Below are positions 12,111 to 35,355 of a stretch of DNA of 64,000 bases, piece by piece. The translations under genes and the position numbers were made by a program. Source of the DNA: Amphiscolops sp. MND2022 (lineage: Eukaryota); contig OZ076409.1 of NCBI GenBank assembly GCA_964187785.1, forward strand, positions 67,086,001 through 67,150,000. The letters are read 5' to 3'. Below the pieces are notes generated by a model that saw only the letters and a program-made list of their open reading frames with translations, did no database searches and was not told where the DNA came from. Every line of letters begins with the position of its first letter. Position 1 is the stretch's first letter.

Positions 12111-12152
12111 GCACGTCGACCACAAGTTGTGCACGTCTGAGAGTTGTTAGAA

Positions 12153-12165
12153 TGGGCCCATAACC
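12153..12165 (-). promoter_or_regulatory. Copia primer-binding site, internal tRNA(iMet)-fragment type
   Basis: Minus strand reads GGTTATGGGCCCA, the motif used by Drosophila copia-like (Hemivirus) elements. Confidence 0.75.
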
Positions 12166-12859
12166 TCTAGGACTATGAGCAGTATTGCGATTGAAAATGA
12201 CTGGAGAGGTCAAGATTGTTTTGATTATTATTTGATCTGATTTGATTGATAATTGGTTCAGCACCCCGTATATAAACTCTGCAAACAAGATAATTCACAT
12301 GGAAAAGACTATTTGCGCCAGGTTCCCTGAAACTTAATCAAATTCCAGGAAGTCAACAACGTGAGTCGTATCATAAATGGTGATCGCGTAACGTCATTCT
12401 TTGAAACGTTGCATCTTTCTGTGAAAATGACGACAGTTCTGCGAAATGACCAAAAGGCGCATTGTGCTTTGAGTTCACGTCAATCGATTGTCAAAGTTCA
12501 CTTTCACTATTGTTTTCGGTTCATATACACTGTTACGCGGCTCAAGTCAGGTTAGTTTACTTTTTCATTGTATGCATTTACTTTCTAACACTTGAAAGAA
12601 TATCGCTCGATACTTCTAACATACTGGATGTTCCCACTTACGAAACTGTTCAAAAACTGTACAAATGTTGCCATCAATTTCTCAAAAATTGGAAAAGGTC
12701 AATAAAGGGATTTTCGAACTACAAGTTTGGGTTTCGAACCTAAAGATAATGCTAAGTAAATACTTTTTTTGTAGTCTCTATCGTTTATATCAACCAAACG
12801 ATCCAAAAATTTTATCAAAAGTTATTGTATTGTAAACGGTTGGCACCCGGCTCAATGGT

Positions 12860-16872: not shown

Positions 16873-17535
16873 CCCAGGTTAACCATCATGGCTAATTCAT
16901 GGATATTCATCCATGATTCATGGATCGCCATGTCATGAATCATTCCATGATCTTGGAAAGATATCCATGATTCATGGATGATTCATTAATGGAAACCCAT
17001 GATTCATGGATGGAAACCCATGATTCATGAATTAAATCCCCGACGCCGAGGATGATCATCGATGCAAATTAATGCGAAGGCCCAGTTTTTGAACTGGCCG
17101 TTGAACTGGATACACCAGATTCGATGAATAATGAAAAGAATAGTACCATAAAATCTAGTTTTGGATTGATGAACTTCGAAAAGACCCTCAAAAATGATGA
17201 AAATACCGAAAAAGAGCACAAATTAAGCGGATATAATGGGATTGGACATCTATCGAAACAAACAAGTCAAATAAACCTCAGTTTTATGAGAACCCATACG
17301 CACAGAAATATTTGTCTAGGCTAAATTAGCTAAATTAGCTAATTCGAACATTTGAACGAATTTTTCAACATTGCAAATCATGGATGAATCATGGATGACA
17401 ATCATGGATGAAAATCCATGAAGCGTCACTCTGCCATGGGCCATCGATGTTTTTCCATGAATAAGTATGTAATGTGTTGAAAAATCCATGATCATAGATG
17501 AATATCCATGAATTAGCCATGATGGTCAACATGGG
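16873..17535. mobile_element. MITE with ~45-bp TIRs and CATGA/CATGG subterminal repeats (CMC/EnSpm-like)
   Basis: Left CCCAGGTTAACCATCATGGCTAATTCATGGATATTCATC. Right end is its near reverse complement (...GAATATCCATGAATTAGCCATGATGGTCAACATGGG). CCC...GGG termini, flanked by TG on both sides. Confidence 0.8.
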
Positions 17536-17635
17536 TGCTCGTATACCTCGAGGTTTTTGATAACCTTGATCGCTCCAGATCGAATCATTCTGACAAAAAA
17601 GTCTGACAAACAGGTACTAGAAAAATCGGCTCTAC

Positions 17636-18036
17636 TGAGCTGTTAAAAAGTTGTATGGTGGTTTCTTTTAGAAGTGTTAGTACTGACATAAGAAGTCTAA
17701 GATTTTAACAGCGGAGTCGTCTTATCTTTTATCTTGTAGCTAGCTAGTTCTGAGTGCAATCTATTTCTGAGATCTCAGTTCTTGAAGTATGGGAGGAAGA
17801 CCGATTGCTAGAATGAATTCTCAATTTCTCCGAGTAGATATATTCTATTAACTAGGGTAGGTTACATCAATTAACAATGTGACAGCAACAGGATGAATCA
17901 GGGGAGTTTGATACAGGATCTATTAAATGAAGTTTCTTAGTTTCTAAATTAGATTACATTTACTAATTGCTTTGGTTAAGAGTTCAGAGTATTTCAGATT
18001 TATAGAATCTTTGAGGACATGCATCATGGCATCACA
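17636..18036 (-). repeat. 3' LTR of giant element
   Basis: 401 bp, 4 mismatches to 34955-35355 by manual comparison. Confidence 0.97.
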
Positions 18037-19034
18037 ATCAACCGGGAATTTAAAATAAATTACATATATGCACTTTGGGTTTGAGGAGTTCTAGAAGTTT
18101 TTGTTATATGCATGGGTTTGTTTCATTTGTGTTGTACTAGAGTTGCATGAGTTTCGTTTTGTAGAGTACCATACTTAAGGAGTGAGAACAACCTAAGACG
18201 ATTTGACTTCTTACGTCATAGACGATTCAATTGGTGCAAAAAGGTTCAAGCAAGATTCAAGTTCTTTCAGTTTCTTTGACTGACAAGTTCTTTGAAGTTA
18301 TTGTTGACAACTATTTATCATTTCATGTTTCTTTTTCGTATCAGCCATCGGCTTGTTTGAAAAAATTCTTTCTTCAACATGAGTTAGTCAGCATTGAAAA
18401 TTTTTCAAGTTGAAGAATTAAAGCGTGAAGTCGTCAATGAGTTGTGAACCAACATTGGCGGGTATGTGAACCAAAAGTGAAGAAGTTTCGAAAAGTCAAG
18501 GTTCAAGTGAGAGTTCATTTTCAACAAAAGTGAAGAGTAGAGCAGAAGCAATAGTTGAAAAAAAAACTTTGGCTAGTTCAAGTTTCAAACATTGGAAAAC
18601 TAGAAGTGACATTTTTTAAGAGTTCTAAAGAAAAATTTGGAAAACTTTTTTCGAATGCTTTTGGGGATTAAAACAAAATTGTAGAACATGTTTTGTTAAA
18701 GAAAAAAATTTTTGTCCAAAAATCTTAGAAAATTTCTTGTACTGTAGGTAGGACTTGTGTTCTGTAAAAGATGGGGATTAGAGATTTATTTTTGGAGTGT
18801 ATAATTAGGTAAGATAATGTCAATGTACTATACACAATACAATGGAAGTAGATAATATTGTGGTTACAAGGATAATTATAGGTAGAATTTGGAAAGGATT
18901 ATTTTTAATGGAGGGGTAACTATACTACGATTAGAGGAGATTAAGATTAAATAAGAGTAGATAGCACTAAAGATTATATAAGAGTATATAGCACTATACT
19001 ATATGAAAGTTAGAATTTGATAGGTTACAAGAAG

Positions 19035-19343
19035 TTACAAGGTATATTTGTTAAATTTGATTATACAGTTCAGTTTGAAATTTGTATTGGCCATTGGAGT
19101 ATGAAGACCAGTCAAGAAGTCAGCAGTTGAGGTGTGAAGACCAGTCAAGAAGTCAGCATTTGAAGTGTGAAGACCACTCAAGAAGTATCGTGGAGTGTGA
19201 AGACCAGTGACGAGGACAACGTTTGGCAACGTCGATGAACCCAAAGTGGAGATGGATGTTGTTGACCATCGTGTGTGGGTGGAGTGAAGAGTTTCAGCAT
19301 GTGTAGGAGTTCTTTGAAGGAGTGATCGACAGCTACATCTCAA
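19035..19343 (-). CDS. Possible short accessory ORF with (L)TGLHT repeats
   Basis: Open frame of 102 codons with a non-ATG start. Contains four copies of (A/G)GT(G/A)TGAAGACCA (plus strand) at 33/33/30-bp spacing. May be a non-coding repeat. Confidence 0.3.
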   Translation of the reverse strand: MRCSCRSLLQRTPTHAETLHSTHTRWSTTSISTLGSSTLPNVVLVTGLHTPRYFLSGLHTSNADFLTGLHTSTADFLTGLHTPMANTNFKLNCIIKFNKYTL

Positions 19344-19417
19344 ACATCATTGAAGAAGAATGATGGATTCAAGAAGAGATGGAGGTGAAGAGTGATAAAA
19401 GTAAGTAGAATATTGGT

Positions 19418-19870
19418 TTAGTTGTAGAGAGGATGTTGGTGAGGTGGGTGTGCCTGATGTTGATGAGGATCATAGTGTTTCAGTTTCTGGGTATATCCAA
19501 AACTATGAAGCATCTCGTTGAATGCGTTGGTGGCTTCGTGGAGGGCAGCTTGAAAATATTGGTCTTTAGACGTGAACGCTGAGTTTAACACAAAAACGAC
19601 GTTAGAAGCCGTATCACAAATGGCAATTTTTGGTCCGGCGACATGAATCGTTGAATATTGTTCAAATGTAATGTGTTTCTTTTTGATTTGGGTGACATTA
19701 TATAAGACTTTCAGAAAGGCGATAAGAGATTTTGGCGTTATTTTATTGTTGTTTATCTCCAGGGAAAGTTTGTAGGCCATTGTGTGAAAAATAGCTGCTT
19801 TTAGGCTATGAACTTTTGAGTGGCTGGAAGTCATTGTAATTATATCTTGTATTTCAGCGTTGGTGGCCAT
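19418..19870 (-). CDS. Accessory ORF Z (150 aa, unknown function) of giant element
   Basis: Intact ATG-started ORF (GTCATGG context), globular-looking composition, His/Pro/Gln-rich C-terminal tail. Sense to the element. Confidence 0.7.
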   Translation of the reverse strand: MATNAEIQDIITMTSSHSKVHSLKAAIFHTMAYKLSLEINNNKITPKSLIAFLKVLYNVTQIKKKHITFEQYSTIHVAGPKIAICDTASNVVFVLNSAFTSKDQYFQAALHEATNAFNEMLHSFGYTQKLKHYDPHQHQAHPPHQHPLYN

Positions 19871-20288
19871 GACGAGAGAGTCCTGTAGAAGACGAAAAAG
19901 GAGAAGTGGAGATGTTCTGAAAGAGAATGGAAGGAGGAGGAAGAAGAATGGATGTTTCTAAAACAAAGGAAGTGTAAGAAGAATGACAATATCAAGTCAA
20001 AGATGTACAACAAAATTGGGTGCTTTAATGTATCATATGTAGTGTTGTGCTATATTGTCTTGTGTGTCTTATATTGTAGTGTTTTTAATAGAAATAGTTA
20101 GTTTTTTGACATGTACTGTAGGAAAAATTAGTGTACCTGAAAAATAGTCCTGAGATTTCATTCAAAAGCAAAAATTTACTTTAAATAAGTAGGTAAAAAT
20201 GAAAATACCTTGAAGGATGTGTCACAGATGTATCATAGAGTGTACCATAGAAGAAAAATTAAGAACTTTATATTACCTGTAGAAGATT

Positions 20289-21677
20289 TTAATGAAGATT
20301 AGTTGAGTTAAAAAGAGTAGTTATAGTTTCTAAAGCAGGTTGGATTGCTTGGGATGATTGAGTGATGCGTTGAGAGTCTAAATCGAGTGTCTGAAGGAGT
20401 TTGTGTGTTCTGTCGTAGCAGTGTAGTATATGTGTGAGTGTTGTGATAGGTGTTTCAGAGGAGTTTCGTTTATAGGGTTCAAGTAAATTTGTTATGTCGC
20501 GAAGTGTTCGGTTGTTTAATACAGAAAAAAGTTTGTCAGGAGCGTTTTTTATAGGTGAAGCGTTTGATTTTGGTTTATGTTCAGTTTTTTGTTCAGCTTG
20601 TACCATGAAAGAGATAGTTTTGGCAGAGATAAAGAGGAGTTCATTGTAGGAATACGTTTGCTTGTAGAGTGCTGTATAGTACGTTCTATCTTTATCGTCA
20701 AGTGGAGAAGAAACGAGGTGTTTAATAACAGTAAGATGTTTTGCAATTTGAGTAGGAATGTTGCAGGGCAACAAAAAATCATCGTAATGTATGAGATATT
20801 CTAGAGGTACAATAAGTGGACGTGAAGTATTGTTATATGGAAGCAAACAGAAGTATTGTTTTATAGGGTCATAGTTCCGAAGGTAGCCTGTTATACAGGA
20901 GTGGTCCAGAGTGTACATATTTGTCATTGTGAACGGTGATGTATATTTGTAATTGACAAAAATGTGATTTTGTGGTTTCGTGTATTGCAGGAATTTAGTA
21001 TTTGTCTGATGATGAGTAGCTTTTTGTGCTATAGAGAGAAAGGATGGATCAGATTCATCTGTTTTGAGATCGTATATAGAAGGTCGAAGAAAATTGAATT
21101 GGAGAGAGAAAATTTTAACTCCATTTTCGAGCCAATATTGGTATGTACCCATTCTTTTGGAAGCAATGGATGTGAAGAAGTCTTGATTTTTGTCATATAA
21201 GCGAAATGAATAGTCAGTAGGGTGCATATATAGAGTAGTTAGCTGTGCTTTGAAGACGAAATCGTCAGTAGAAAGAATTGAGATCAAATGATCATCGCGA
21301 TTCGTGCAAAGTGAAATTTTTGAAGGTATTGAAGGAGGATATATTGGTGATGAAAGAAAGATTGGATCTTTCATTATTTCATATCGTTTTTTTGGAGGAG
21401 GTGGTGTCGATTGTGTATGATCAGTATCATCTTGTGGAGGAGTAGGTTTTGGATTTTCATTTTCAACTTTTGTGTGTTCCATTGGTTCAAGAAAAATTGG
21501 AGGTGTTTGTTCTGAAGTCTCAATATAGAGAACAGGAGAATCATTTGAAAGAGGTCTAGTTGTTAGATCTGTTGGGGTTGCTTGTTCAAGCTGTGTTTGT
21601 AGGTCAATTTGTGCTTGTGTCATTGTTTTAAAAACATCAACAATCACAGTGTTATCTATTCCAAGAGGCCTTAGCAC
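20289..21677 (-). CDS. Accessory ORF Y (462 aa or more, unknown function) downstream of env
   Basis: Long uninterrupted frame. Contains PPPPKKR basic motif and a ~300-aa complex-composition region. 5' end probably damaged, originally extending to ~21830. Confidence 0.75.
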   Translation of the reverse strand: MLRPLGIDNTVIVDVFKTMTQAQIDLQTQLEQATPTDLTTRPLSNDSPVLYIETSEQTPPIFLEPMEHTKVENENPKPTPPQDDTDHTQSTPPPPKKRYEIMKDPIFLSSPIYPPSIPSKISLCTNRDDHLISILSTDDFVFKAQLTTLYMHPTDYSFRLYDKNQDFFTSIASKRMGTYQYWLENGVKIFSLQFNFLRPSIYDLKTDESDPSFLSIAQKATHHQTNTKFLQYTKPQNHIFVNYKYTSPFTMTNMYTLDHSCITGYLRNYDPIKQYFCLLPYNNTSRPLIVPLEYLIHYDDFLLPCNIPTQIAKHLTVIKHLVSSPLDDKDRTYYTALYKQTYSYNELLFISAKTISFMVQAEQKTEHKPKSNASPIKNAPDKLFSVLNNRTLRDITNLLEPYKRNSSETPITTLTHILHCYDRTHKLLQTLDLDSQRITQSSQAIQPALETITTLFNSTNLH

Positions 21678-21886
21678 TTTAAAGTTAAAGTACTATAAAT
21701 TTCACTAACGAGTGGATTTGTCAACTTTAGTTGAAGAGTTTTTGAAGACGGTTATTATTAGAGAAGTATTATTGGGCTGAGGAAGATGAACTTCTGCAAG
21801 AGTTTCGAGTGGTGGAGGAGTAGCAATTGTGAAGAAATAGTAGGCAAGTGTACTGAAAGAGAGTTAGAGAAAAACTGAGAGAGTGT

Positions 21887-24414
21887 TCAAGAAGATGGAG
21901 GAGGAAAAGGATAGTTTATCCGCGAATAAATTTTAATTGGTGTATCCGTAGTAGAAGTGACAGGATTGTTAATTAAAGTGTCATGTTGAGTAGTTAGATT
22001 GTCATTCGAGTGAAAGTTTTTATGAGTATAATTAGGAAGTGTAGGATGTTGAACAGGAGAGAAAAGAAGTGGAGTCGTTTTATGGTGAGAATTGTGGTGT
22101 CGTTTCGGAAAGAAGGTAAATTTAGGAAATTGAATTTTGTTAGATCGTTTAGTATAGAAACGTGGAGGGGAAGTAACATCGGTAGAATGGTTAATTAAAT
22201 TTGGAGAAGTGTCGATAAAATTATCTAAGGATTTGGATTTTAAAAGTGTACTTTTGGGTTTTTTGTTTTGAGTCTCATGGAGGTCACTGACCATTCGTGC
22301 TGTAAGAACATTAAAAAAACCATGTGCTATAGAACTAAGTAAAGTAATATTATTTTTGAGATTATATTTAATAGATTTTGTTTTGTACAGTTTTACAATG
22401 AGTGTAAGAGTAGCTTGTACGAAAAGAAATGTAGAAAAGTATATACCACATTGTGTGAGAATGTAACAAGGGTATCCAAAAAGTGCAATAAAAGCATCTG
22501 AAAACCATGTAGGTTTAAAAAGAGGAGTTAAATTCAAGAGTTTATCATGGAGTCCTATGCGTAATGTATTGTAAGGATTACCAGAATCTTGAGGGGAATC
22601 TGCATCGTAATTTGGAGTATTAGATGAAATGAAGGAATAACTAAAAGCTTTGCCTAGTAATTGGAGTGTAGAATCAGAATGTTTAGAAAATAAAATACGG
22701 TTCCAAAACTGATCAAGTTCTGCATTTGAATATATACCAGCATCTTGGGCTGTAAAAGTATTAGGGCGTATTGTAGTTTTGATTTGTGAGGGTGTAAACA
22801 TTAGTGGAGGTTTGCGTTTGATAGGTTCAGGTCCAAGAATGTAAAAGTCTTGATCGTCTGAATCAGGATCTAGTTCAATAATGTTACGTGGATTATTATC
22901 ACATTTAATTGGTGTAGCATAATCATAAGTTTGTCTTGTAATAGGATCAACGTACATTAAGGTATCTTTAAAGTGTATGGGTATATGGTCAAAGCATCTA
23001 TCTGCTTTGTATAAAGGAGATAAAAAATGAGGACAGTCATAAAGCCAGGCGGTTGAGCCTTCAACGTATAAGAAGTTACTTCTATTACCGGTTAAAAGGA
23101 AACCAGCAAGTTGAGGGTTTTGTACTGACATTGCGAGTATTGTAAGGAGTTGATTTCGTTCTAGTTCACATATTGTATGAAGAGTATTTAGTTCTTGTAC
23201 TGTCATTGATCGGAAGACATGATTAATAGTATAATCGATTTTGGTGTTTATATGTGCATCATAATTAATGGTAGCAAAATTGTTGAATACATTTAATGCA
23301 GGAAACACAAATTTGTTATTTGAAGTGTCCCATACTATTTTACCGGAAATATATTCATCAATCATGGAATGAGGATTGGGTTGTCCTGTATGCATATTGA
23401 AACCATCAGTGTATGTAACAAAAAGGTCTGAATATTGTGTAGAATAAAGAGGGTCTGGTTTACCACAAAAGGTTTGTGCTGTAGGGAAAACTTCAAATCT
23501 TGAAAGACTTGGATTATTTGGGTGTTGTGTATGAGGAGCATAAACATAGGGGAGTTTTTGTAGTGGGTTTACAGAAGCCATCTGCAAAGTAGCAGGGTAA
23601 TGTATGTCCATCAATTATCATGTCATTTGATGTGTCATCATATGTAAGTTCTACTTTAGAAACTTCTAGTCGCCAACTAACTAAGTTGACTTCGAATTGA
23701 TGATGAGCAGGACAGTTATGATAAGGGTTTTTTGTAGGGTCATATATCCAGTTTTTATCAGCAGGCATAAATGTAAATGTACCTGTATACATTTTGTTCA
23801 GTTGATATACAGTGAAAGGAGTTTGATATTGTTCTAAACGTTCTTGAAAATAATGGTCTTCTAAGAGTGTAAAGGTTTTGTTGTATTGAAGGTTATTCAG
23901 TATTTTATCATTTGTACCATTTAAATGTCGTATAATGTTTTTACATTCTGCTGGTTCAAGAGTAACAGGGAGCGGTAATGTATTATGATTCCATACGGTT
24001 CTATCAACACGGCGGTATTTTACGGAACCTTGAAAGCATATTTTTCTTTCTTTTTTTGCATAAGCAACACATTTAAAAGCTTTGATGCGTTTAGCTTTTG
24101 CTCGGACATATACACGGGCTTTAACACTTGCATGTTTAATGTCGGAAGGAGCATTGTTTTACATTGAGTAAATTAAATTGTCTCAGATTGTGTTGTTTTG
24201 CACAGTCATAATGAGAAACCATGAGATTTGTAATATTCGGGTCATCCGATGGAAGATAGTTGTCAGTGTCAGAGAGTGTTATGGGTATGGAAAAGGTAGA
24301 GTTAAATAAATGTAAATAAAGAATTAGAGTTGTTATGTAAAAGGTTGTATAGGGTTTAAAAAGATGTTGTATATTTAAGACCGGAGTATGGGTTACAGAA
24401 GAAAATATTGCCAT
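21887..24414 (-). pseudogene. env: env: class III fusion glycoprotein resembling chuvirus G / herpesvirus gB (two frame disruptions)
   Basis: Signal-like TTFYITTLILYLHLFNSTFS. N-terminal SHYDC...LLNVKQC. Core INTKIDY...ICELERNQL...GSTAWLYDC...DRCFDHIPI...PITRQTY...IKC. C-terminal TM segment YILTQCGIYFSTFLFVQATLTLIV and long tail. Several N-x-S/T sequons. Frameshifts at ~24160 and ~23545. Confidence 0.82.
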
Positions 24415-25597
24415 ATGTGATAGTGGGTATATTAAGATCGCGTTCAAATTCAATATGTACTACTTCGAAAGGAGCAGGAGAGGTTTTATGTTCTAACTTA
24501 GAAACGTGAAATATTGGGTGTGGATTTAATCCTTGAAATTTAACTTTGACTTCAAATTTAAGTTCTAGATTTGATGTCTGAAGGCGTTTTAGTTCTGTTT
24601 CTTTGCGTTTGTGAGATAAGAGGTCGTTATTGTTAATAAAACGTTCTGCAAGAATTGGAAGTCGGGGATCGTTTTGTGGGTCGTAGATGGTTATACCATA
24701 GACTCTAAGTGGATAGTCAGCAAAATTTGGAGTTGGAGGTCTAGAGTGTTCTGCAGTATAGTATTCGGGCAGTCTAATATGTGCAGGAACAGGAGTAGGG
24801 ATTACTACTTGTGAAAAGAGATCTCCTGATAGAAATGCAGTCTGTGGGTTAGATGAGAGTAATGGAGCGGTTTCAAAACCAGAAGTAAAATAAGGAGATT
24901 GAAAGAGCTCTGAAGATGGTGTGTCAGAGGACAATGGTTGAGCGTGTTGTCGTACAAGTCGTAATGCAGAATTGCTAGAAAGAGTCGAAAAATTGAGTGT
25001 TGAAGTGTCTGTACTAAGTCTACGTGAAGGAAGGTCACGTAGATTATATCTATGTTTAGGTACAAAAAGTGAGCTTGTGTCTTGTGATGGAGCGTAGTCT
25101 GAAGTATTATTGTCTAAGAGATTCGAGAGTGATGTAAAGGGTTTTCGAAGAGGTTTTAATGGTGGATAAAGTTTTGAAGGAGTAGTGCTAAGTTCTGAAG
25201 GTAATTTTAGTGGAGGTAGCTTTGTATATTCAGTATCAGGGATTTGTACAAGATTAAGTTGAGGTTGGAGTCTAACAGTTTTGATAGCTGTAGGATGTTT
25301 GTATGTTACGTATTGTTCAACACTTTCGGGGTTTGGTATGTGTATAATAGGAGTGTTAATAGGAGTTTGTTGAGGACGAGTGTTTATAGGAATTTCAGTT
25401 ATAGGTGGTCTGTGAAGAAGTGAGGAAGAGGTGGTTTCAGAGATGTATGATCTTGGTCTTTTAGAAGGAGTAGTAGGAGTTACATTACTAGAGTTTGTAG
25501 TGCTAGATACTGAAGATTCAGGTGGAGAAGGAATACTTGGAGCTGATGGAGATATATCAGAGGGAGGATCCAGGGTTGTTGAAGTGTTTTCAACAGG
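24356..25597 (-). CDS. ORF X: 414-codon Pro/Ser/Thr-rich open frame between integrase and env, no ATG
   Basis: Manual translation is stop-free from 25597 to the TAA at 24356-24358. The ORF track shows only its last 192 aa. Contains RYNLR. Confidence 0.7.
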   Translation of the reverse strand, partial: PVENTSTTLDPPSDISPSAPSIPSPPESSVSSTTNSSNVTPTTPSKRPRSYISETTSSSLLHRPPITEIPINTRPQQTPINTPIIHIPNPESVEQYVTYKHPTAIKTVRLQPQLNLVQIPDTEYTKLPPLKLPSELSTTPSKLYPPLKPLRKPFTSLSNLLDNNTSDYAPSQDTSSLFVPKHRYNLRDLPSRRLSTDTSTLNFSTLSSNSALRLVRQHAQPLSSDTPSSELFQSPYFTSGFETAPLLSSNPQTAFLSGDLFSQVVIPTPVPAHIRLPEYYTAEHSRPPTPNFADYPLRVYGITIYDPQNDPRLPILAERFINNNDLLSHKRKETELKRLQTSNLELKFEVKVKFQGLNPHPIFHVSKLEHKTSPAPFEVVHIEFERDLNIPTITYGNIFFCNPYSGLKYTTSF

Positions 25598-25683
25598 TTA
25601 TCTTTGAGATAACTTGTTATGGGTTATATTTCATTCAACCAGAGTGACTAGGTTTGAGTGAGCCAACGGATAGAATGACTAGA

Positions 25684-28600
25684 TTACAGTTGTGAAGGTG
25701 TAATAAAAAGTCTATAATCTAATTTGGGTTGTTGTCGTAGTTTATAGGGAGTTTTTGTGGTTCCGTCAATTTGAGGAGGAAGTGAAGTGGCTTGGTTCTT
25801 AGATGAGTGTCTTGATCTGTCACTAGAGATAATAGTATTAGGGGTATTAATTATATGTCTATATAAGGAGTTGTCATTGGTTGAGGAAGTCAAAGAATTG
25901 TCATTGGATGTTATAGATGGTGTATTCTGATTGGGTGTACTAAATGATGATGGTGTTACAAATGTTTGGGAATCTTCTTCAGACAACGATTCGTCTGAGT
26001 TAACAGGAGAAGAATCACTGTTTGCATATTTGGTAGGTTGTGGAATTTGAAATTGAGTTGTGTCTGAAAAGCGCATAAAACTACGCAGGTGTGGATATAA
26101 GAGTGGTTCTTTTGGATAATATGGAATTAAATGATTTCTGTTGACGTGTACTGTAGAGCCATCTTGTGCAAGTAGTGCATATGTGACGTCTGATAATCTA
26201 TCAAGAATTTTATATGGTCCAATCCGAAGGGGTTTTAGTTTGTCAGAAAAGTGAACGTGGGTAAAATTGCGTTTTAAAACAAAGGTACCAATAGGAAGGG
26301 GTTTACCTTCATGGTAAGTTTTTGTAATATATGCGTGTGAAATGATTTTTCTTAGAGTGTTTTCGTATACTGTAGAATAAATTTGTAACATAGCAGTTTC
26401 TACAGCGAGAAACCAATGTGGAATGGGTTTTGAAAGTGTTTTATAGAAAAATGGGTTTATATCGGATTTATCATAATGGCAGTGTGCTGGAAGTTGAGAG
26501 CAATATCGTGAAATACATGTTTTAGAGGTGTCTCGGTTAAGGTTCAAATCAAATGTAAGGGGTATTCTGGGTCGGGTGTGGAAAACAATTTCGTGAGGTG
26601 AAATGTTGAGTTCTGAAAGTGGTTGTGAATTATGTGCATAAGCGTACATATGGACTTGGAATGCCCAATCTTTAGGTGTGTCATGTAAGAACATCCGTAA
26701 ATGGGTACCAAGATTTCTATTTTGTACTTCAACAAGGCCGTTTGTCCAAGGAGAATAAGCTGTTCGAGGAGAATGACGAATTCCCATAAGTGTGCAAAGG
26801 TGTGCCATTTCTTTATTAACATATTCTGATCCACGATCAGTGACAAGATATATGGGTGGTCCAAATTTAATAATCCAATGGTGTAGGAGAGTTTTGATAG
26901 CAGTATTTGCGTTGTTTGATTTGATGGGTACTGTAACAACAAAGTGACTAAAAGCGTCAATTATCACGTGTATATAGGATTTGTTGTGAGAAGGAGGATT
27001 AATAGGTCCTTTAGTGTCCATTGAAATTCGATAGTTGAAAGATGGAGCATGTTCTGAAAAAGATTGTGTGGGAGCAGTTTAAATTTTCATATTAAAGTGT
27101 TTGTTTCGTTGACATTCAATACAATCATGTATAAAAATGGAAAGCCAATTTTCAAGGAATGGGATATAGTAATATTGTTTGAAGGTATTGTAGGTGATTT
27201 TCATACTAGTATGAGAGTGTTCATGGAGTTTGTCAAAAACAGTTTTAAACAGTCGGAAAGGTAGGCATATACGAATAGTGTCTTGTACAAAATTTGGAGT
27301 AGTGGATTGGTTAATAACAGTGGGGTTTGTAATATATAGACTAATAAGATTTGTGGATTCGTCAATGAAAAGTTGTGAAAATCTTTTGTAATATACATTT
27401 AGAAATGGAGTACCAGTGATAACAGGTGTTATAAATTCGGGTTTTTCATTATTTAATAACCAAGAATAAACAGTTCTAAGAACCGGATCTTGAGATTGTT
27501 GTTGTTGAAGAGTTTTTATGTCTAATGAGTAATCATCTGGAAGGAAGAAACCTTGAAAATAGTTTTTGTACTTAAAGAATGATCTATCATAAAAAGGTAC
27601 GATTTGTTGACAGTGTGTGAGAGATGGTAAATTTGGTTGTACATTTATTGCAGAAATTGATTTTTGTGAGGTATTGTGAGTTGGTTGTTTAAGAGTAGAA
27701 TAATTTTCTGTTTGTAATGTTGTGTCTTGTAAGAAGGAAGAGTCAGATTTTGGAATTCTGGTGTAAATATGATCTTCGTCATCACTTGTAACGTCAATAT
27801 CATTAAGTAAGAGAGATTGTTGATGAAGGGTTTTGTTGTTCTTTTTGGTAGGTGTCTTGAACTTAGTTTGAAAAGGAGTTATGGATTTGAATGAGAAGGA
27901 TTGTAACGGTTTGACAACAATTTCATTTCCTTTATCTTTGATACGAATAGAGAATTGATCTGTACCATAATCAGCAAGAATTGGATGAGAGTCATGTTTT
28001 TGATGAGGTAAAATTTCTTCATGTTTTATTAAGTAATGTACAGGTTTAAGAGTGTTATCTTGTAAAAGTGCAAAATCGATTTGTGGTGGGAGGTGTTTAT
28101 GTTTTAATTGGTTTAGTTGTAATTCAGCTTTTGTAAAGGTGCGACTCAACATATCGGCAACAGAGAGATTTTTTCCAGGAGTGTGAATTCTTTTGAGTTT
28201 TGAAAATTTTGTCAGTTGCGTTTGAGCTCTATAGAAACGAGGACTGAGATTACCTTTCTTGGTAAAATAATGTAATAAAGGTTTGTGGTCAGTAAAAATG
28301 TGTATTGGATGTGGAGAACCTATGATGAGAAATTCATAGATTTGAAGTGCGTGTACTATACCAAGAAGTTCTCTATCAAGTGTGGAGAGTTTTTGTTCTT
28401 GTGGATTAAGTATACGAGAGTTGTACGATATGACTTTCATTTTGTTTTGTTCATTCAATTGAAATAAGACAGCGCCTAATCCTAAGGGAAGCGTCAACTG
28501 TAATGAAAAATGTATGTTTTGTATTTGGTATTGTTTATTCTGTTTCAGAAGTGAAAGACATTTTAAGTTTTTGGAATAGACTTTCGTGTTCGTCTGTCCA

Positions 28601-30135
28601 TTTCCAAGGAGTGTTCTCATGTAAAAGATCGTAAAATGGTTTGAGGTTAATATGTAGTTTTTCAATAAATTTGGTGTAAAAATTGAGTGCGCCAATGAAA
28701 CTCATTAGGGCAACTTTGCCAGTTGGAGAAGGGATCTTATGAATAGCTGCAATTTTTGGATGGATTGGTTTAATTGTATTGTAACCAATTTCATGTCCAA
28801 GGAATTTGACTTTAAGAAGCATGAAAAAGGATTTTTCAGGGGCTAGTTTAAGATTGTTTTATGTACTAATAATGTGCAATTGTTCTATGAGTTGAAACAT
28901 GTGTTCTTTAGAATCAGATAAAAGTAATATATCGTCAATGTAGACAAGAGCGAAACCTTGTTCTATAAGAGTTTTAAAGAAAGTAGACATTTGTTTTGTA
29001 AAGAAGTTTGGTAGTCCTTTGAGACCATAAAAGCCTCTGATAAAAGCGAAAAGTTTGTCTCCGGAGGAGAAACTAGTAAGTTTTATAGTATCTTCGTCAA
29101 GAGGTGTATGTGCATAGGCATACATAAGGTCAATAGCGGATTTGTAGTTTTTGTTTGCGCGTGCTAATTGTGGAGCAAGAGGTTCAATAGGCCAAGATTC
29201 ATCAGATTGTTCTGTATTGGAGTTAAGATGTCGAGCGTCTAAAACACATTTTATTGTATCTCCCTTGGGGATTATAATAAGAGGATTTAAATAAGTTGTG
29301 CCATAAACGGGTTTGTCTTGAGGAGAAGAACCAATTTGTTTGATAATGTTATATTTTTCGAGTTCTTTGAGAAGTACGTTAAGTTTGTCTCAGTAGTGAA
29401 TAGGGACTTTGGAAGGACGTTGTGTCATAAGTTGAGCATTTGGTTTAAGTCTTACACGAAAGGGTGTTGAAATTTTTCCAACATCGTTTTTATGAGTTGC
29501 ATAACATGTTTTATATTTGAGTAACATATTGCAAAGAGTAATGTATTCTGTATCTGTGAGGTCAGAAAATTGGAAGTTAAATTTATTAATGAATTTTAAA
29601 TTTTCAGAAGTGTATGGTAGGGAAGGAAAAATGCGTTTTTCAGAAGTGTGAGAAGTAGGTTGAACGTTATATAAAGGAGAAGTTTGATTTGGAATGTCAT
29701 CATTTGTCATATAACTTTGATGTAGAGAGAATTGAGGAGGAGGGGTTGAAGGATCATCATATTGTACAATATAGTTGGTCTGTGGAAGTGGTTCAGTAAT
29801 ATCAGGATGATAAGTATGGGTAACGTTATGTATTAAAGTATTAATGTCGTTAACTTGGAAGAATTTAGGTTTTTCATTAGTAATTGGAACTTCAATGTAT
29901 CCAATATGTCCTGTAGGTAGAGTTGCAACATGTTTTGAAGTGTTCTGAATAATAGTTGCACAAATATCTGGTTTGTCATCGGTAAATACTTCAATAAAAT
30001 TGAAATTTGTACGGAATTTGGTTGCAAAATAGGTATGAGGTACTGAAGGAAAGAAGTGGTTTTGTGGTGTGGTTGTAAAATGAAGATTATGATAATTTTT
30101 GATCGGAAAGTGTGCAATTTTGGAAGATTTGGGTT
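25684..30135 (-). pseudogene. pol: pol: RT, RNase H and integrase, with several stops/frameshifts
   Basis: RT LDARHLN, IDLMYAY, YIDD, VKFLGH. RNase H VDAS...RELLGIV...FTDHKPL...ADMLSR. Integrase HEHSH...CIEC zinc finger, MDTKGP/TDRGSEY/NGLVE catalytic D-D-E, GPY motif RIGPYKI. Confidence 0.95.
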
Positions 30136-33100
30136 TTAGACGTATCTGAGATTTTGAGTTAATTCTATAAATGTAAGAGAAGTATGGATAATCTTTAGAT
30201 GGAGTGTTGTGAATTTTGTATAATTTGGGTGTGTTTTTGATTGGTATTTAAATTCGAGTGTAAAGTCTTGTATGTTTATGTTTTGTATATTGTCTTCAAA
30301 GAATGGTGTGCCAAGGATGTTGTATTTGATATCAGCTACTGCGAAGGGTACTGAAAAGTAACGAGAGTTTTCATCAATAGTGGTGTTCAAGATTATATCT
30401 GCATAGTGTAAAATAGGAACTTCAGTTTGGTTTGCAACGGTTAATGTTTTGGAATTTCGAGTTGGTCCAACATCAGAGGTGTGATTTGATCTAATATCTA
30501 GGAGTTTTGTAAGAGTTATGTATGTTGGGTAATTGAGTACAGAAATGGAAGCACCGCTATCTAGGAGGAATGCAATTTCTAATCTAGATGGGTTGTCTCT
30601 TTGTACTATACTTGATGGGGTGTGTACATATAGAGTATAAAACCAACTTGTAGGTGTGACAGCATTTGCCATTGCTGTTGGGTGATACATGTGTACTTCA
30701 AATTTGATAGGGTCAGTTTGATCTTGTTGTTGTATCATATTGATTTTATTTCTGGAATTTGAGTGTGAGCGAGATCCAGAAAATCTAGAGTCTCTTGGTC
30801 TTGATGGTGGTCTATATGAATTTGTGTACTTTGTGAATTTGTTATCTCTTGAATAGGAGCGTGATCTGTATCTAGGACGAGAGTTTTGTCTATATGGGGA
30901 TCTATAAGAAGATCTGTAAGGAGAACGGTAAGATCGAGAATCACGTTTGTATGTATCATATCTTGATCTGGAGTAGTGTGGAGGAGTAGTACTTTTGTCA
31001 TAACGAAATCTGTCTCTATCTCGAGATGTAGAACGGTATCGGTTTTGTGAATATTTTTGGTTATAAGAGTTTTCTCGTGAAGTACTTCGACTTCGGTATC
31101 GATTATCATAGTGTTTTGTTCTGTCATTGGAAGGAGAACGAAAGTACTGAACGAATGATTTTTGTGGAGATTTTGATCGAGCATATGCTTCTCGTTTATC
31201 TTCTTCATCTCGTTGTTTTTTGAAACAAGCAGAAATGGAGTGATTTGTTCTATGACAGTATGAGCAATATTTTTTATATGCAGGTTTATTTTTGTTATTT
31301 GGGTCTTTGGGTTGTGTATACATAAGTTGTTCTTGAGATGGGTGATCTAGAGTTTGAGTTTTCAATTGTTTTGTAATATTATTGATTTCAAGTGCAAGAT
31401 CGTGTGTTCTGATTTTGTCGTTTGCAATATCTTCAGCGTCAACAAGTTTTACTAAGGTATGAAAAGGAATTGAAGGTTCTAAGACAGTGGAGGTGTGTTT
31501 TACTTGTCTTTTATTTGCAAAATCTTTAAGGTTTTTTGGAAGTCCTTTTGTAAAGATTTCAAAACAATTAAGGTTTATAGTAGATGCATTCTCATTACAC
31601 CAGCCTTTTTCAACCAGTTGTTGAACTTTGAGTGCAAAATGACGTACTGTTTCATTGTCTTTCTTTGTTAAATTAGAGGCTTCAACTTGAGCATAGTAAG
31701 CGTTCTTTTGTGAGGAAAATTGTTTTTTGAAAGCTTGTACAAAAGCGTGCCAATCATGTTTATAAGTGTCGTTTAAACGGATGTACCAGCTTAGTGCTGT
31801 GCCTGTTAGAGAGCATTGTATAAAAGCCATGCGACGGGCGTGCCAAAATTTATATTCATGTTCCGATGTAGGTTGTAAACCTAAGGAAAATGTAACACGT
31901 GCCTCATTATGTTGTAAATATTCTTCAGGTGTATAGTTGTGATCAAGTCCATCAAAAGGTTTATTGGGTTCTGATATAGAAGTAGAAGAATTAATATATG
32001 TTGGGTGTGACATAGTGTTATGAGACATAGTAGATGGAGGTGTTGTATTGTATGTGGGGTTATTGGAAATATTAGGTAAAGAAGTAGTTGAAGTACCATG
32101 AAAGTGAGGGTTAGTTCTAATTGTTGTCGAAGGAGGATTTGGTATATGAAATTGAGAAGTTTGTAATGTAGGAGTGATTGTATTGGATGTATGTTGAGAA
32201 AAAAGAGTATTTAATTGGTTGGATGTATTGTAATTTATCTGAGATTGTTGTGTATGACTTGGATTAGTACTGGTGAGACTGTATGATAATGGATTAGTTA
32301 ATATAGGTTGTAATGGAGGTCGAGAAAGCTGTCTTGCAGTAGTATAATCTGTAGATGGGTTAGAATGGATGGTGTTAATGTTTAAGGTAGTTTGTGTAGT
32401 TTGTACTGAATTGGTTTGAGCTGGAGTATAATTCGAAGTTTGTATTTCAGAGGATAATGGTGGAGTTGGTGTTTGAAAATGTACTATATTATTGTTTTGT
32501 GCAATGTAGGGTGTATTTGATGAGCTTTGTTGAGGAGTGTCATGGGTGTTTATCTGAGTTGAGAATTGGGGTGGAACAGAAGGTGGATTGTAATTTCGAG
32601 GAAATATTATTTGTGTCTGAGAGGGTTGTGTAATGTTAGTGTTAGATGTAGATAAAATAGAGGTATTGTCTGGATTTGTATTTGAAGTGTTGTCTTGATT
32701 TTGGTTTGTAAATTCATTTTGTGTGATATTGTGGGTAGGAACTAGTAGAAGATTTGAATCATCGGTTATTGTAAAACTTCGTGTATTTTGTACTGTTTCT
32801 TCAGAAAGTTCTGATGTATTGTGAATTGTATTTGTTTCAGAAGGATTTGGTTGTTGCATATCTGAGATTTGTGATAATGGTGGGTATGATAGTTGTTCTT
32901 GAGGAAGATCAGGATTTTGAAAAAGATTAGTAAGGGCTTCTTGTTCTGGGGATTCTTGTTCTGATTGGTCTGATTGTTGTCTTGTATATGAAGGTTCAAC
33001 ACTAGAGGTTTGTTCTTCAGGAGTTGTTTCATGAGAAGTATCAGGTGTAGTAAAAGGTCTGTTGTCTGATGTTTCAGAATGTTCAAGTACAAAGTTGTGA

Positions 33101-33879
33101 TCTAAGGTTATTTGTTCAAAATGTGTAACATTTAGTGAAATAAGATCTCGGTAATGTAAATAATTGTTTTCATTTTTTATGATGTATGGTAAGAGTTCTA
33201 TATGTGGTAATATTTGAGGGAAGTTAATATAGGCTTGTTGATCTTTTTGTTCCCATATTAGTTGATAGTTAAATCTAAGAAACTTTAATAAGAATTGTGT
33301 AAAAATTTTGACTTGAGGTATAGTGTCATCTGTAAGAATAATGTTGGTAAAGAATCTGTACTGAAAATGTTTTATTTGTAAGATATCTCGTTGTAACCAA
33401 TAATGAGCATTATCATGTCGTTGGACTTTTGTGTCAAGATCTGGGACCTCGAAATCTTCAGATCTATGTTTTAGTTCATGTAAATCAGAAGGACAATAAG
33501 GTGGTGTATCTTGGTTTTCCTTGAATTCAATGAGTTTTGGCATGTAAGTGTGAAAAACATCTTGTATAGAAAGTGTAATATTTTTTGGGTGTATAGTTCT
33601 ATAAAATGTTCCAGAGTTTATTCCTTTAACAGGGTTAAAAATAACTTGAAAAGGGATTTTTGATGGTGTAATGTCAAGTGTTTTATAGCGGATATAATAT
33701 AGATAAGAATCACAATGTTCTCGTACTAATGGAATAGTATGTAATATATGGGGTTCTGTTTCAAATGGAAGTGGGTTAGTGTACTGAAAGATAATGTTTT
33801 GTAGAAAAGGTGTTACATCTTGTATAAGAGATCGATTTTGTCTTTTGTCAGTAGTGACTGTAAATGGAGTGGGGAGCAT
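30136..33879 (-). CDS. gag: gag-protease polyprotein (1247 aa to first frameshift)
   Basis: Capsid-like PFDG...LTGTALSWY...ETVRHFALKVQQL. CCHC knuckle CSYCHRTNHSISAC. RS-rich block. Aspartic protease FLLDSGASISVL...ILGTPFF. Confidence 0.95.
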   Translation of the reverse strand: MLPTPFTVTTDKRQNRSLIQDVTPFLQNIIFQYTNPLPFETEPHILHTIPLVREHCDSYLYYIRYKTLDITPSKIPFQVIFNPVKGINSGTFYRTIHPKNITLSIQDVFHTYMPKLIEFKENQDTPPYCPSDLHELKHRSEDFEVPDLDTKVQRHDNAHYWLQRDILQIKHFQYRFFTNIILTDDTIPQVKIFTQFLLKFLRFNYQLIWEQKDQQAYINFPQILPHIELLPYIIKNENNYLHYRDLISLNVTHFEQITLDHNFVLEHSETSDNRPFTTPDTSHETTPEEQTSSVEPSYTRQQSDQSEQESPEQEALTNLFQNPDLPQEQLSYPPLSQISDMQQPNPSETNTIHNTSELSEETVQNTRSFTITDDSNLLLVPTHNITQNEFTNQNQDNTSNTNPDNTSILSTSNTNITQPSQTQIIFPRNYNPPSVPPQFSTQINTHDTPQQSSSNTPYIAQNNNIVHFQTPTPPLSSEIQTSNYTPAQTNSVQTTQTTLNINTIHSNPSTDYTTARQLSRPPLQPILTNPLSYSLTSTNPSHTQQSQINYNTSNQLNTLFSQHTSNTITPTLQTSQFHIPNPPSTTIRTNPHFHGTSTTSLPNISNNPTYNTTPPSTMSHNTMSHPTYINSSTSISEPNKPFDGLDHNYTPEEYLQHNEARVTFSLGLQPTSEHEYKFWHARRMAFIQCSLTGTALSWYIRLNDTYKHDWHAFVQAFKKQFSSQKNAYYAQVEASNLTKKDNETVRHFALKVQQLVEKGWCNENASTINLNCFEIFTKGLPKNLKDFANKRQVKHTSTVLEPSIPFHTLVKLVDAEDIANDKIRTHDLALEINNITKQLKTQTLDHPSQEQLMYTQPKDPNNKNKPAYKKYCSYCHRTNHSISACFKKQRDEEDKREAYARSKSPQKSFVQYFRSPSNDRTKHYDNRYRSRSTSRENSYNQKYSQNRYRSTSRDRDRFRYDKSTTPPHYSRSRYDTYKRDSRSYRSPYRSSYRSPYRQNSRPRYRSRSYSRDNKFTKYTNSYRPPSRPRDSRFSGSRSHSNSRNKINMIQQQDQTDPIKFEVHMYHPTAMANAVTPTSWFYTLYVHTPSSIVQRDNPSRLEIAFLLDSGASISVLNYPTYITLTKLLDIRSNHTSDVGPTRNSKTLTVANQTEVPILHYADIILNTTIDENSRYFSVPFAVADIKYNILGTPFFEDNIQNINIQDFTLEFKYQSKTHPNYTKFTTLHLKIIHTSLTFIELTQNLRYV

Positions 33880-33894
33880 TATATGATATTAAGT

Positions 33895-34128
33895 TTAATT
33901 AGTATAATAAGATTGCCATAAAGGATAGATGTATCGGAAAAGAAGATATTTTGTATTGAATTGTGAGTTATATGGTAAAAAGTGATCTATGAAAACCACT
34001 TGTAAGAAAATAGTAAGTACAATACTTATGAAAAGAAGGAATGGGTTTTGTATATATTGAATAAGTATATGGAAGGTGTGGTAGATACTAAGTAGTCCAA
34101 AAAGAGGTAGTACTATACTTGTTAACAT
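33895..34128 (-). CDS. Small hydrophobic ORF (77 aa, 1-2 predicted TM segments) immediately upstream of gag
   Basis: ATG-started; hydrophobic segments IVLPLFGLLSIY and PFLLFISIVLTIFLQVVFI. Ends 15 nt before the gag ATG. Confidence 0.55.
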   Translation of the reverse strand: MLTSIVLPLFGLLSIYHTFHILIQYIQNPFLLFISIVLTIFLQVVFIDHFLPYNSQFNTKYLLFRYIYPLWQSYYTN

Positions 34129-34147
34129 AGAAGAAAAAGGTTGTGCT

Positions 34148-34270
34148 TCAAAGTTTTGGTATGAATGAAATTAAGAATTTGTCCAGAAAAAGTGCAAGAC
34201 CAGCAATGATAGCAACAAAGAACCAAAAGCAGACAATGAGTTTAACTATAGTGTCTACTGAAGGCGGCAT
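34148..34270 (-). CDS. Small single-TM ORF (40 aa) upstream of gag
   Basis: Manual translation MPPSVDTIVKLIVCFWFFVAIIAGLALFLDKFLISFIPKL*. Ends 19 nt before the 77-aa ORF. Not in the ORF track. Confidence 0.5.
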   Translation of the reverse strand: MPPSVDTIVKLIVCFWFFVAIIAGLALFLDKFLISFIPKL

Positions 34271-34585
34271 GTACAATGAAGAATGTGTCCAAGAGGTTGT
34301 ATTAAAATTTGTTTTATATCGGTGTATGAAAAATGAAAGTTATATAAAGAAATATGTGAGGTATGTGTTATATATTTTAATTGTTATGTATTTGGATCCG
34401 TAAACTAGTTTTAAAAGAGTTTTGTATGTTGTTTGTACTGTAAAAGAGGGAATAAGAAAGGTATTATAAATATGTTATGTAGAAAATATGTGTTAAATAT
34501 GTGTGCCAACTTTAAAGTTGATCCAAGCGGCTAGAACCAAAGAGATTTCTACTAGCAGGTATCGCTGGATAGCAGTGTAGAAGGG

Positions 34586-34757
34586 CCAACACGTATCGCA
34601 GGTCTGCGGTTGGAACGGAAGAAAGAGAAAAAGCCAACACGAATTCACTCAGTGGTGGTTGGAACGAAAAATTTACTGACAGGAATTACGTCAAGAAACG
34701 TAGTCAGAACCAAGAAATATGACTGACAGGAATTACGTTGAAAAACGCAGTCAGAAC
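34586..34757 (-). promoter_or_regulatory. Array of four bulged stem-loops in the 5' leader (candidate packaging/dimerisation signal)
   Basis: Plus-strand units CCAAC..GTTGG (x2) and CTGAC..GTCAG (x2). Each has an A(C/G)G(A/T)AT bulge, an upper stem and a trailing AAC. Confidence 0.55.
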
Positions 34758-34934
34758 CATAGCAACACGGATCAATTTCAGATAGAAATTGGTTGCAACG
34801 TTGAAGTTAGTAACGATAGGCGATGTTGAGAGGTGGAGAAACTGTGTGTCGAACAAAGAGATAGCGTATGAGAAAGTCGAGGAAAGAGGTACAACAAATG
34901 TAGATGTGTGAAATAAATGGGAGAGAAAAAAAGA

Positions 34935-34952
34935 ATTTTCTTGGTCGCACCA
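34935..34952 (-). promoter_or_regulatory. tRNA primer-binding site of giant element
   Basis: TGGTGCGACCAAG... begins 2 nt after the 5' LTR. Cognate tRNA not identified. Confidence 0.8.
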
Positions 34953-34954
34953 AT

Positions 34955-35355
34955 TGAGCTGTTAAAAAGTTGTGTGGTGGTTTCTTTTAGAAGTGTTAGT
35001 ACTGACATAAGAAGTCTAAGATTTTAACAGCGGAGTCGTCTTATCTTTTATCTTGTAGCTACCTAGTTCTGAGTACAATCTATTTCTGAGATCTCAGTTC
35101 TTGAAGTATGGGAGGAAGACCGATTGCTAGAATGAATTCTCAATTTCTCCGAGTAGATATATTCTATTAACTAGGGTAGGTTACATCAATTAACAATGTG
35201 ACAGCAACAGGATGAATCAGGGGAGTTTGATACAGGATCTATTAAATGAAGTTTCTTAGCTTCTAAATTAGATTACATTTACTAATTGCTTTGGTTAAGA
35301 GTTCAGAGTATTTCAGATTTATAGAATCTTTGAGGACATGCATCATGGCATCACA
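34955..35355 (-). repeat. 5' LTR of giant element
   Basis: TGTGATG...GCTCA in sense orientation, followed by the PBS. Confidence 0.97.

Follow-up and report, generated by a model that had tools for sequence, protein, structure and literature searches.

A broken Ty3/gypsy element of Amphiscolops sp. carrying a class III-type env and a probable CUG-dependent leaky-scanning route to its expression

The nematode element Tas, which Malik et al. reportedly described in 2000, is said to combine a long terminal repeat (LTR) element with an envelope (env) gene of the class III fusogen type, the type of herpesvirus glycoprotein B (gB) and chuvirus glycoprotein G. In mosquitoes, BEL/Pao elements carry a Chuviridae-like glycoprotein (Dezordi et al. 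2020, cited in PMC13524379). More recently, 1,512 env-carrying Ty3/gypsy elements were reported across animals (Chary & Hayashi, eLife 2026; PMC13524379), with gB-type env as frequent as F-type env and 114 elements recovered via chuvirus-like baits; chuvirus-like env beside gypsy pol was among the cases described, and elements with a gB-type env bear there the name of ‘HSV/gB-type errantiviruses’ (HSV, herpes simplex virus). Here we describe an element of this kind from Amphiscolops sp. MND2022, located in a stretch of 64,000 nucleotides (nts) of assembly GCA_964187785.1 (contig OZ076409.1, positions 67,086,001 to 67,150,000 of the forward strand). This whole stretch is hereafter called the window, and coordinates refer to it unless otherwise given. 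A first-pass annotation had flagged an env of the chuvirus-G/gB type in a Gypsy element and had doubted its novelty; the doubt was justified, since gB-type env in Ty3/gypsy elements is already published (PMC13524379). What is new beyond the flagged env is the layout of the element, with multiple open reading frames (ORFs), and a probable route to env that involves a CUG start and leaky scanning. Taken as a whole, the locus is likely to be a broken Ty3/gypsy copy with a class III env that would be made by leaky scanning past the CUG of an upstream ORF, termed X.

Translation of this type is known from a plant virus. Rice tungro bacilliform virus (RTBV) combines an AUU start and AUG-free ORFs with scanning over about 900 nts to the downstream gene, short upstream ORFs (uORFs) being tolerated, and Env of the simian and human immunodeficiency viruses (SIV and HIV) is produced from dicistronic messages (PMC5902531). 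In Oikopleura, an internal promoter can drive transcription of the env of the Gypsy-type elements Tor3b/4b (PMC4402516).

The flagged env belongs to an LTR element of 17,720 bp that occupies positions 17,636-35,355 on the minus strand and comprises the following main features:

34,955-35,355, minus strand: 5′ LTR of 401 bp, TG...CA, with 4 mismatches to the 3′ LTR (99.0% identity)
34,943-34,952, minus strand: primer-binding site (PBS) TGGTGCGACC, just after the 5′ LTR
25,684-33,879, minus strand: gag-pol (gag, protease, reverse transcriptase (RT), RNase H, integrase), broken here, a single frame of 2,734 codons in open natural copies
24,356-25,573, minus strand: ORF X, 405 codons from a CTG at 25,573, without Met, overlapping the start of env; supported by its open frame, the conserved CTG and its ratio of nonsynonymous to synonymous substitution rates (dN/dS)
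21,887-24,414, minus strand: env, assigned to class III (gB/chuvirus-G type), broken near 24,150 and 23,550, 901 amino acids (aa) in open natural copies
17,636-18,036, minus strand: 3′ LTR of 401 bp, paired with the 5′ LTR
17,632-17,635, no strand: target-site duplication of 4 bp, with its second copy at 35,356-35,359

The gene order, in the window as in open copies, is small ORFs, gag-pol, X, env, ORF4 and ORF5. Hallmarks of Ty3/gypsy elements are present in the TG...CA LTRs, the target-site duplication and the PBS, and Gag-Pol contains gag, protease, RT, RNase H and integrase in this order (Pfam and motif positions 688, 1108, 1649, 1763 and 2212-2380). Among solved structures, the RT is nearest to Ty3 (E 1e-37), followed by an entry at 1e-26, foamy at 6e-19 and the rest at 2e-7 or weaker, with no BEL/Pao RT among the matches listed. 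By its Pfam domains and the affinity of its RT, the host element is a member of Ty3/gypsy (Metaviridae), and the Gypsy assignment of the first-pass annotation stands. In the window copy, gag-pol is interrupted by nine frameshifting indels and four stops, some of the 1-nt indels being possible assembly errors. Two frameshifts had been noted in env. Two breaks are indeed present, but a small frameshifting indel accounts for only one of them, near 24,150; at the other, near 23,550, the window copy is shorter than an open natural copy by about 170 nts. The two LTRs are 99-100% identical in 8/8 full copies measured, and 4-bp duplications flank the other 7/7 full copies checked. Judged on its sequence, the window copy is a dead, recently inserted Ty3/gypsy LTR element of an 18-kb family. 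A search for the tRNA that would prime at TGGTGCGACC gave four pattern matches, none of them within a tRNA gene.

When 300 residues of env were searched in the genome from which the element comes (1.07 Gb), 8,448 first-look candidates were returned, of which 131 were scored; across three family searches, first-look candidates numbered 5,800-8,600 per search. A hand count gave open frames of 913-927 codons for about 92 of the 131 best-scoring env matches. Open natural copies of this family (family A) contain, besides the 2,734 codons of Gag-Pol, an X frame of 418 codons without Met, an env of 901 aa from its Met, ORF4 of 447 aa and ORF5 of 150 aa. A profile search with the Pfam family PF24664 uncovered further env families in the same genome, whose env identity to family A is 54% in B, 61% in C and about 26% in D-G. 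X and ORF4 are common to families A, B and C, while families D-G carry other extra ORFs. A Gypsy-type gag-pol precedes env in 9/9 other elements mapped, and the visible PBS is the same in six other mapped elements, including families B, E, F, G and D929, with one base different in family C. Beyond this genome, a metagenome contig (L146) carries gag-pol-env and two more ORFs together with the same PBS TGGTGCGACC; since it shares both layout and PBS, the lineage is not restricted to this genome. In the host, COX1 has AGA/AGG at Ser, ATA at Met and TGA at Trp positions, as in the invertebrate mitochondrial code 5, which speaks against a cnidarian, ctenophore, sponge, tunicate, echinoderm or rhabditophoran flatworm. 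The marks of HSV/gB-type errantiviruses, namely Ty3/gypsy pol, gag, gB-type env and intact multiple copies, are all found in the family, the window copy itself being broken.

Two arrangements of related sequences were also observed. At least three near-identical family-A elements form a head-to-tail array (L021-L024, G000:C9:7.87-7.91 Mb) with an 18.2-kb period and paired LTRs about 540 bp apart. A second metagenome contig (L150) holds a gB-type env relative of 746 aa among unrelated ORFs, with no pol within 6 kb and an ATG-poor upstream region.

The motifs on which the env had been flagged are all in place on the minus strand: the env ATG at 24,414, YDCAKQ at 24,210, NTKIDY at 23,248, CELERNQL at 23,170, LYDC at 23,044, CFDHIPI at 22,996, the transmembrane (TM) segment from 22,450 and the stop at 21,887-21,889. 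The cytoplasmic tail, estimated at about 165 aa, comprises 168 residues past the TM segment. A signal peptide had also been proposed, and it corresponds to a hydropathy peak at residues 23-45; like the membrane anchor at residues 715-733, it is predicted from hydropathy only. The 575-codon piece of env in the window scores 70.9 bits with PF24664 (Monjiviricetes_fusion; cut-off 27, E 7e-20), hence the motif matches are not due to chance, and a natural open env copy reaches 82 bits. Of the 16 Cys of env, 14 occur in 93% or more of the aligned sequences, the protein has seven sequons, and no R-X-K/R-R site was found in its ectodomain. Within-family dN/dS of env is 0.06-0.11 (6/6 pairs).

An AlphaFold model of residues 51-760 of an open natural copy (710 residues, 34 relatives in the alignment) reached a mean predicted local distance difference test score (pLDDT) of 71 and a predicted template modelling score (pTM) of 0.47; its N-terminal half is beta-rich and it contains a 46-residue helix. 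With Foldseek, 32 of the 32 matches listed from the PDB are herpesvirus gB (best E 4e-12), and the top matches in BFVD are xinmovirus, chuvirus and related glycoproteins (E 2e-26 to 8e-24, 12-15% identity), which is the outcome that the first-pass annotation had named as supporting its call. With VIA, gB gave Z 11.3 over about 400 aligned residues at a root-mean-square deviation (rmsd) of 16, gB domain IV alone Z 8.3 at rmsd 3.8, and lyssavirus G Z 8.3 at rmsd 4.5; the Foldseek and VIA matches span env residues 11-557. Against the assignment speaks the poor structural fit of the whole chain (pTM 0.47, TM-score about 0.25-0.44, rmsd 16-30). Such a fit is expected if the domains are placed unlike in the post-fusion forms, and domain-level identity is therefore less sure than the family call. 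The candidate fusion loop (model residues 82-96) has a pLDDT below 50. Sequence-only searches of env versus the PDB gave no accepted match, a condensin at E 0.15 being rejected. Profile and predicted fold together make it nearly certain that this Gypsy-borne env belongs to the class III fusogens.

ORF X lies directly upstream of env and has 405-456 codons. Its first half is rich in S, T and P, while the C-terminal domain of about 200 aa is conserved and basic, with 38-49% identity between families A, B and C. The dN/dS of X is 0.05-0.15 in 6/6 within-family pairs and 0.088 between the window and an open copy; between-family values (0.2-0.5) were discarded as saturated (dS 1.2-2.5). The substitution pattern indicates that X is a real gene under purifying selection. 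Neither X nor ORF4 had a match above cut-off in Pfam, PDB profiles or the ESM Atlas; for these two ORFs, a cofilin (PDB profile, E 0.2) was rejected and the best ESM Atlas score, 0.81, is at chance level.

The start of X was surveyed in 51 copies taken among the best matches (20 of 131 in family A, 16 of 150 in B and 15 of 131 in C). AT(C/A)-CTG-GA is found near the start of the X frame in 50 of them, the sole copy without the CTG being broken further on. In 45 of the 50 copies, the frame that begins at this CTG remains open over 400 codons or more, and 44 of these 45 are Met-free. A scan that did not use the motif arrived at the same CTG as the first in-frame near-cognate codon of X in A, B and C, among the rows listed. 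Its context is A-3/G+4, and the window copy reads ACC-CTG-G at 25,573. CTG is a rare codon in these G-poor elements, accounting for 6/232, 1/258 and 2/185 gag-pol Leu codons in the three families, and the start CTG is the sole CTG of X in families A and B. Between two B subfamilies at a dS of about 1, the start CTG is the only one of five CTG-bearing Leu pairs retained in both; in family C, where dS is 0.35, four of seven such pairs are retained, which is little informative. The first ten codons of X in family B show six synonymous and no replacement changes, and the 30 codons upstream of the CTG are unalignable. In family A, one synonymous and six nonsynonymous changes occur upstream of the CTG, compared with three and none downstream. 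In these two families, coding constraint thus sets in at the CTG. No stable hairpin was found downstream of the CTG (-1.6 to -6.9 kcal/mol over 70 nts). Conservation of a rare codon in this setting makes it likely that X starts at the CUG.

The region between pol and env measures 1,299-1,739 nts; a cluster of ATGs directly follows the pol stop, and X begins 101-365 nts past it. Between the CTG and the env ATG, the reference copies of families A, B and C contain 2, 0 and 1 ATGs, respectively, compared with medians of 20.5, 18.5 and 25 (minima 6, 8 and 10) in equal-length windows of other ORFs. Counted in 41 copies (four others, in which the env start is not open, were excluded), the number is two in 16/16 copies of A, zero in 11/13 and one in 2/13 copies of B, and one to three in 12 copies of C. 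The two ATGs of family A open uORFs of one and two codons. In B and C, the longest ATG-free stretch of the element (1,665 and 1,183 nts, respectively) stops exactly at the env ATG. The control trinucleotides GAT and CAT are not depleted, and under null models that preserve the X protein the deficit of out-of-frame ATGs has a P of 0.018-0.058 in A, depending on the codon table, 0.002 in B and 0.008-0.018 in C. As in RTBV, a conserved near-cognate start in strong context heads a selected ORF, and this upstream ORF is nearly AUG-free, most weakly so in A. In family E (L067-L068), which has no X homologue, the longest ATG-free stretch (1,047 nts) likewise stops exactly at the env ATG. Long leaders traversed by scanning ribosomes may be a general trait of the clade.

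These features suggest how env could be expressed. A subgenomic RNA, arising from an internal promoter or by splicing, would begin past the ATG cluster behind the pol stop. A minority of ribosomes would initiate X at the weak CUG, and most would leak past it and scan 1.2-1.4 kb to the env AUG. X would be co-made with Env at a fixed ratio, a role in assembly or RNA handling being a guess. Given the abundance of ATGs in env, ORF4 and ORF5 would be expressed from separate messages. The Env protein would be glycosylated, anchored and trimeric, and would merge the membranes of particle and target without cleavage by furin, as is established for class III proteins. It would likely let particles enter neighbouring or germ cells. 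From the sequence pattern, leaky scanning on a shared X-env message is probable.

A number of observations weigh against this reading. The copies were picked among the best-scoring matches and are hence biased to intact ones, and the S/T/P-rich composition of X may be a partial cause of its lack of Met. In family C, the boundary at the CTG is blurred (two synonymous to two nonsynonymous changes upstream, five to three downstream) and AGs are found just upstream of the CTG. Family A shows only a weak deficit of out-of-frame ATGs (P 0.018 or 0.058), and its env ATG has a C at -3. Of the 41 copies, four (in C) exceed the commonest ATG count of the family, with an in-frame ATG in one case, and two B copies have a 13-codon uORF starting with ACC-ATG. 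Moreover, the ATG statistics of families A, B and C are not independent of one another, since these families are kin. A gB-type env is also present in families D, F and G, where X is missing, and no ATG-free zone is seen in D731, D929, F and G. As for transcripts, X1 contigs (of uncertain kind) thinly cover 27/30 bins with no usable splice joint, and are uninformative on expression.

The same region could be read in other ways. X could be the 3′ exon of a spliced gene, comparable to CERV-, rev- or tat-like genes, with env on its own spliced or internally promoted message and the CTG merely a conserved Leu. This would agree with the pyrimidine-rich stretch before the CTG in family B and the AG dinucleotides 7-28 nts upstream of it in C, as well as with the Tor elements, for which both spliced and internally promoted env messages are described. 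However, the interval from the last stop to the CTG is free of AG in 2/2 copies of A and 2/4 copies of B among those listed, and change is synonymous only from codon 2, ahead of the first downstream AG (29-137 nts away in A and B). Splicing would also leave unexplained the loss of out-of-frame ATGs and the retention of a rare codon at a dS of about 1, and we regard it as unlikely. Considerably less probable is that X starts at the CUG and env is translated by stop-start reinitiation after X. The env ATG does lie 4-6 nts past the last X codon in several copies of B and C, but the spacing varies, from 56 nts inside X in A to +11, +32 and +54/55 in other copies of B and C; furthermore, reinitiation has no need for the loss of out-of-frame ATGs inside X, and the weak CUG would throttle env. 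The lack of Met in X and its position just 101-365 nts past the pol stop could also point to a C-terminal extension of Pol produced by readthrough or frameshifting. Stops in the X frame between the end of pol and X in A and B, a frame offset that depends on the family and the tolerance of indels upstream of the CTG leave this extension with almost no likelihood. Leaky scanning past the CUG is thus the reading retained for X and env.

A separate question is the origin of env. One model is recent capture from an RNA virus resembling chuviruses, an origin that has been proposed for the mosquito BEL/Pao elements. The best structural matches are Monjiviricetes glycoproteins and the Pfam family bears their name, yet the top viral matches share just 12-15% identity with env, and none of 26 pattern matches to env relatives in viral contigs was confirmed. 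In addition, the Gypsy elements that carry env in this genome have the same PBS, with env identities going down to 26%, and the metagenome contig L146 has the same layout. Trees of RT and Env from eight elements, which are unrooted, small and poorly resolved at other nodes, show the same split of A-B-C from D-E-F-G with 100/100 support. A recent capture from a chuvirus, one of the origins that the first-pass annotation could be taken to imply, is disfavoured by the low identity, the lack of a confirmed relative in viral contigs and the parallel splits, and is highly improbable; the comparison of sequences indicates that the partnership of env and pol is likely old rather than the product of a fresh viral capture. 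A BEL/Pao element with a chuvirus glycoprotein does not fit this locus, given the Ty3/gypsy pol and the lack of a close viral G among the matches.

The closest described systems remain the HSV/gB-type errantiviruses (PMC13524379), with which the element shares a Ty3/gypsy pol, the order gag-pol-env, a gB-like env with signal peptide, Cys and TM anchor, and many near-identical intact copies. It differs in its size of 18-19 kb, in a pol-env gap of 1.3-1.7 kb that contains a Met-less ORF, and in the ORFs located after env and before gag. The prefilter of that survey allowed at most 1,000 nts between pol and env and at most 10 kb overall, therefore elements like these could be missed. No discussion of CUG or other non-AUG starts, splicing or accessory genes was found in its main text, acoel names are absent from text and supplements, and the PBS TGGTGCGACC is absent from the element table; judged by this PBS, the clade is therefore probably outside its elements. 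The mosquito BEL/Pao elements and Tas pair the same fusogen type with an LTR element, whereas the host element is Ty3/gypsy here.

With regard to translation, the resemblance to RTBV and badnaviruses lies in the non-AUG upstream ORF and the AUG-free scanning (PMC5902531). In RTBV, an AUU start on the pregenomic RNA of a plant pararetrovirus was demonstrated experimentally, while here a CUG before env in an animal LTR element is proposed from sequence. Env of Tor3b/4b is furin-cleaved, unlike the env described here with its lack of R-X-K/R-R, and the Tor passages of the source mention no Met-less partner ORF (PMC4402516). Large Gypsy elements with extra ORFs are represented by planarian Burro, plant Ogre and bdelloid ORF3 elements, and Burro shares a MATH domain with the sister families D, E and F; in contrast to the env discussed here, that of Burro is F-like and in frame in a polyprotein, and that of bdelloids is paramyxovirus F-like (PMC6431247, PMC5408684). 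A small membrane ORF before gag recalls, by resemblance only, the sORF2/FAST-like proteins of Drosophila MDG1 (bioRxiv 10.1101/2025.03.14.642691). However, sORF2 has 63-107 aa, is usually N-myristoylated and belongs to env-less elements, while the peptides found here have 37-48 aa, lack MG and belong to env-bearing elements. Hence gB-type env in Gypsy elements, large multi-ORF Gypsy elements and, in flies, small pre-gag membrane ORFs are already known. A conserved CUG-started ORF followed by an ATG-free run to env was not found for any LTR retrotransposon in full-text literature searches, which leave most subscription journals uncovered.

The remaining ORFs of the window copy are the following:

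34,148-34,270, minus strand: small ORF 1, an open frame for a predicted single-pass membrane peptide of 40 aa, upstream of gag
33,895-34,128, minus strand: small ORF 2, hydrophobic, 77 aa, upstream of gag; 79 aa in three other family-A copies
20,289-21,623, minus strand: ORF4, 444 aa, of no known family, conserved at 35-44% identity across families A, B and C
19,418-19,870, minus strand: ORF5, 150 aa, of no known family; unrelated ORFs occupy the same place in B and C

Hydrophobic peptides of 37-48 aa in the leaders of B and C look like small ORF 1, with L/I-D/E-K after the hydrophobic stretch, a likeness judged by eye. ORF4 has a within-family dN/dS of 0.06-0.11 (6/6 pairs) and a predicted structure with a pLDDT of 39, in which we presume, as an impression only, Tudor/SH3-like central strands. 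In ORF5 (19,418-19,870), synonymous sites are saturated relative to the open copy, compared with a dS of 0.16-0.27 in X, env and ORF4; by this divergence, the ORF5 region is probably a 3′ module that has recombined. Tandem repeats of 33 nts (19,094-19,222) and 27 nts (18,943-18,996) occur in the 3′ non-coding part of the element. Just upstream of the 3′ LTR (18,037-18,060), a polypurine tract is absent in family A, and family B is without a clear one. A MATH/TRAF domain (Pfam E 7e-22; L066:4657-5406, with homologues in L068, L070, L076 and L077) is encoded by the second ORF downstream of env in families D, E and F. Within the 4-5-kb pol-env spacers of D and E (L065-L070, L077-L078) lie paralogous ORFs in tandem, two or three per spacer, which have 105-160 aa, share 23-35% identity with one another and belong to no known family; the spacer of family D has an additional tandem coding-like repeat.

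Elsewhere in the window, an element resembling a miniature inverted-repeat transposable element, with 45-nt inverted ends (93%), adjoins the 3′ LTR at 16,873-17,535. A small LTR-like element of about 3.5 kb (9,090-12,621) has repeats that are 85-88% identical and, on the minus strand, pol remnants that we take to be copia-like from their motifs. Two decayed copies of another Gypsy-like family, 71-80% alike, lie in opposite orientation at 38,963-41,272 and 62,071-63,999. On the plus strand, positions 50,847-51,992 contain an uninterrupted frame of 382 codons for a major facilitator superfamily transporter (PF07690), with only four relatives of 49-72% identity.

The extra conserved ORFs and the Met-less X were not part of the first-pass annotation, and they alter the picture of the element. 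On balance, the evidence favours a clade of ‘complex’ Ty3/gypsy retroviruses of 18-19 kb, now spreading, with a gB-type fusogen, at least five accessory genes and bicistronic, CUG-leaky expression of env. If the CUG and leaky-scanning reading is true, X would represent a conserved protein family that escapes AUG-based gene callers, and a concrete expression route would be available for a gB-type errantivirus env. It would also mean that translation in the style of pararetroviruses operates in an animal LTR element, unseen by AUG-based annotation and by the published errantivirus screen. Because the families are very abundant and have many open copies, their transcripts and proteins should be easily detectable in the host. 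On this reading, invertebrate Gypsy elements can match complex retroviruses in gene content.

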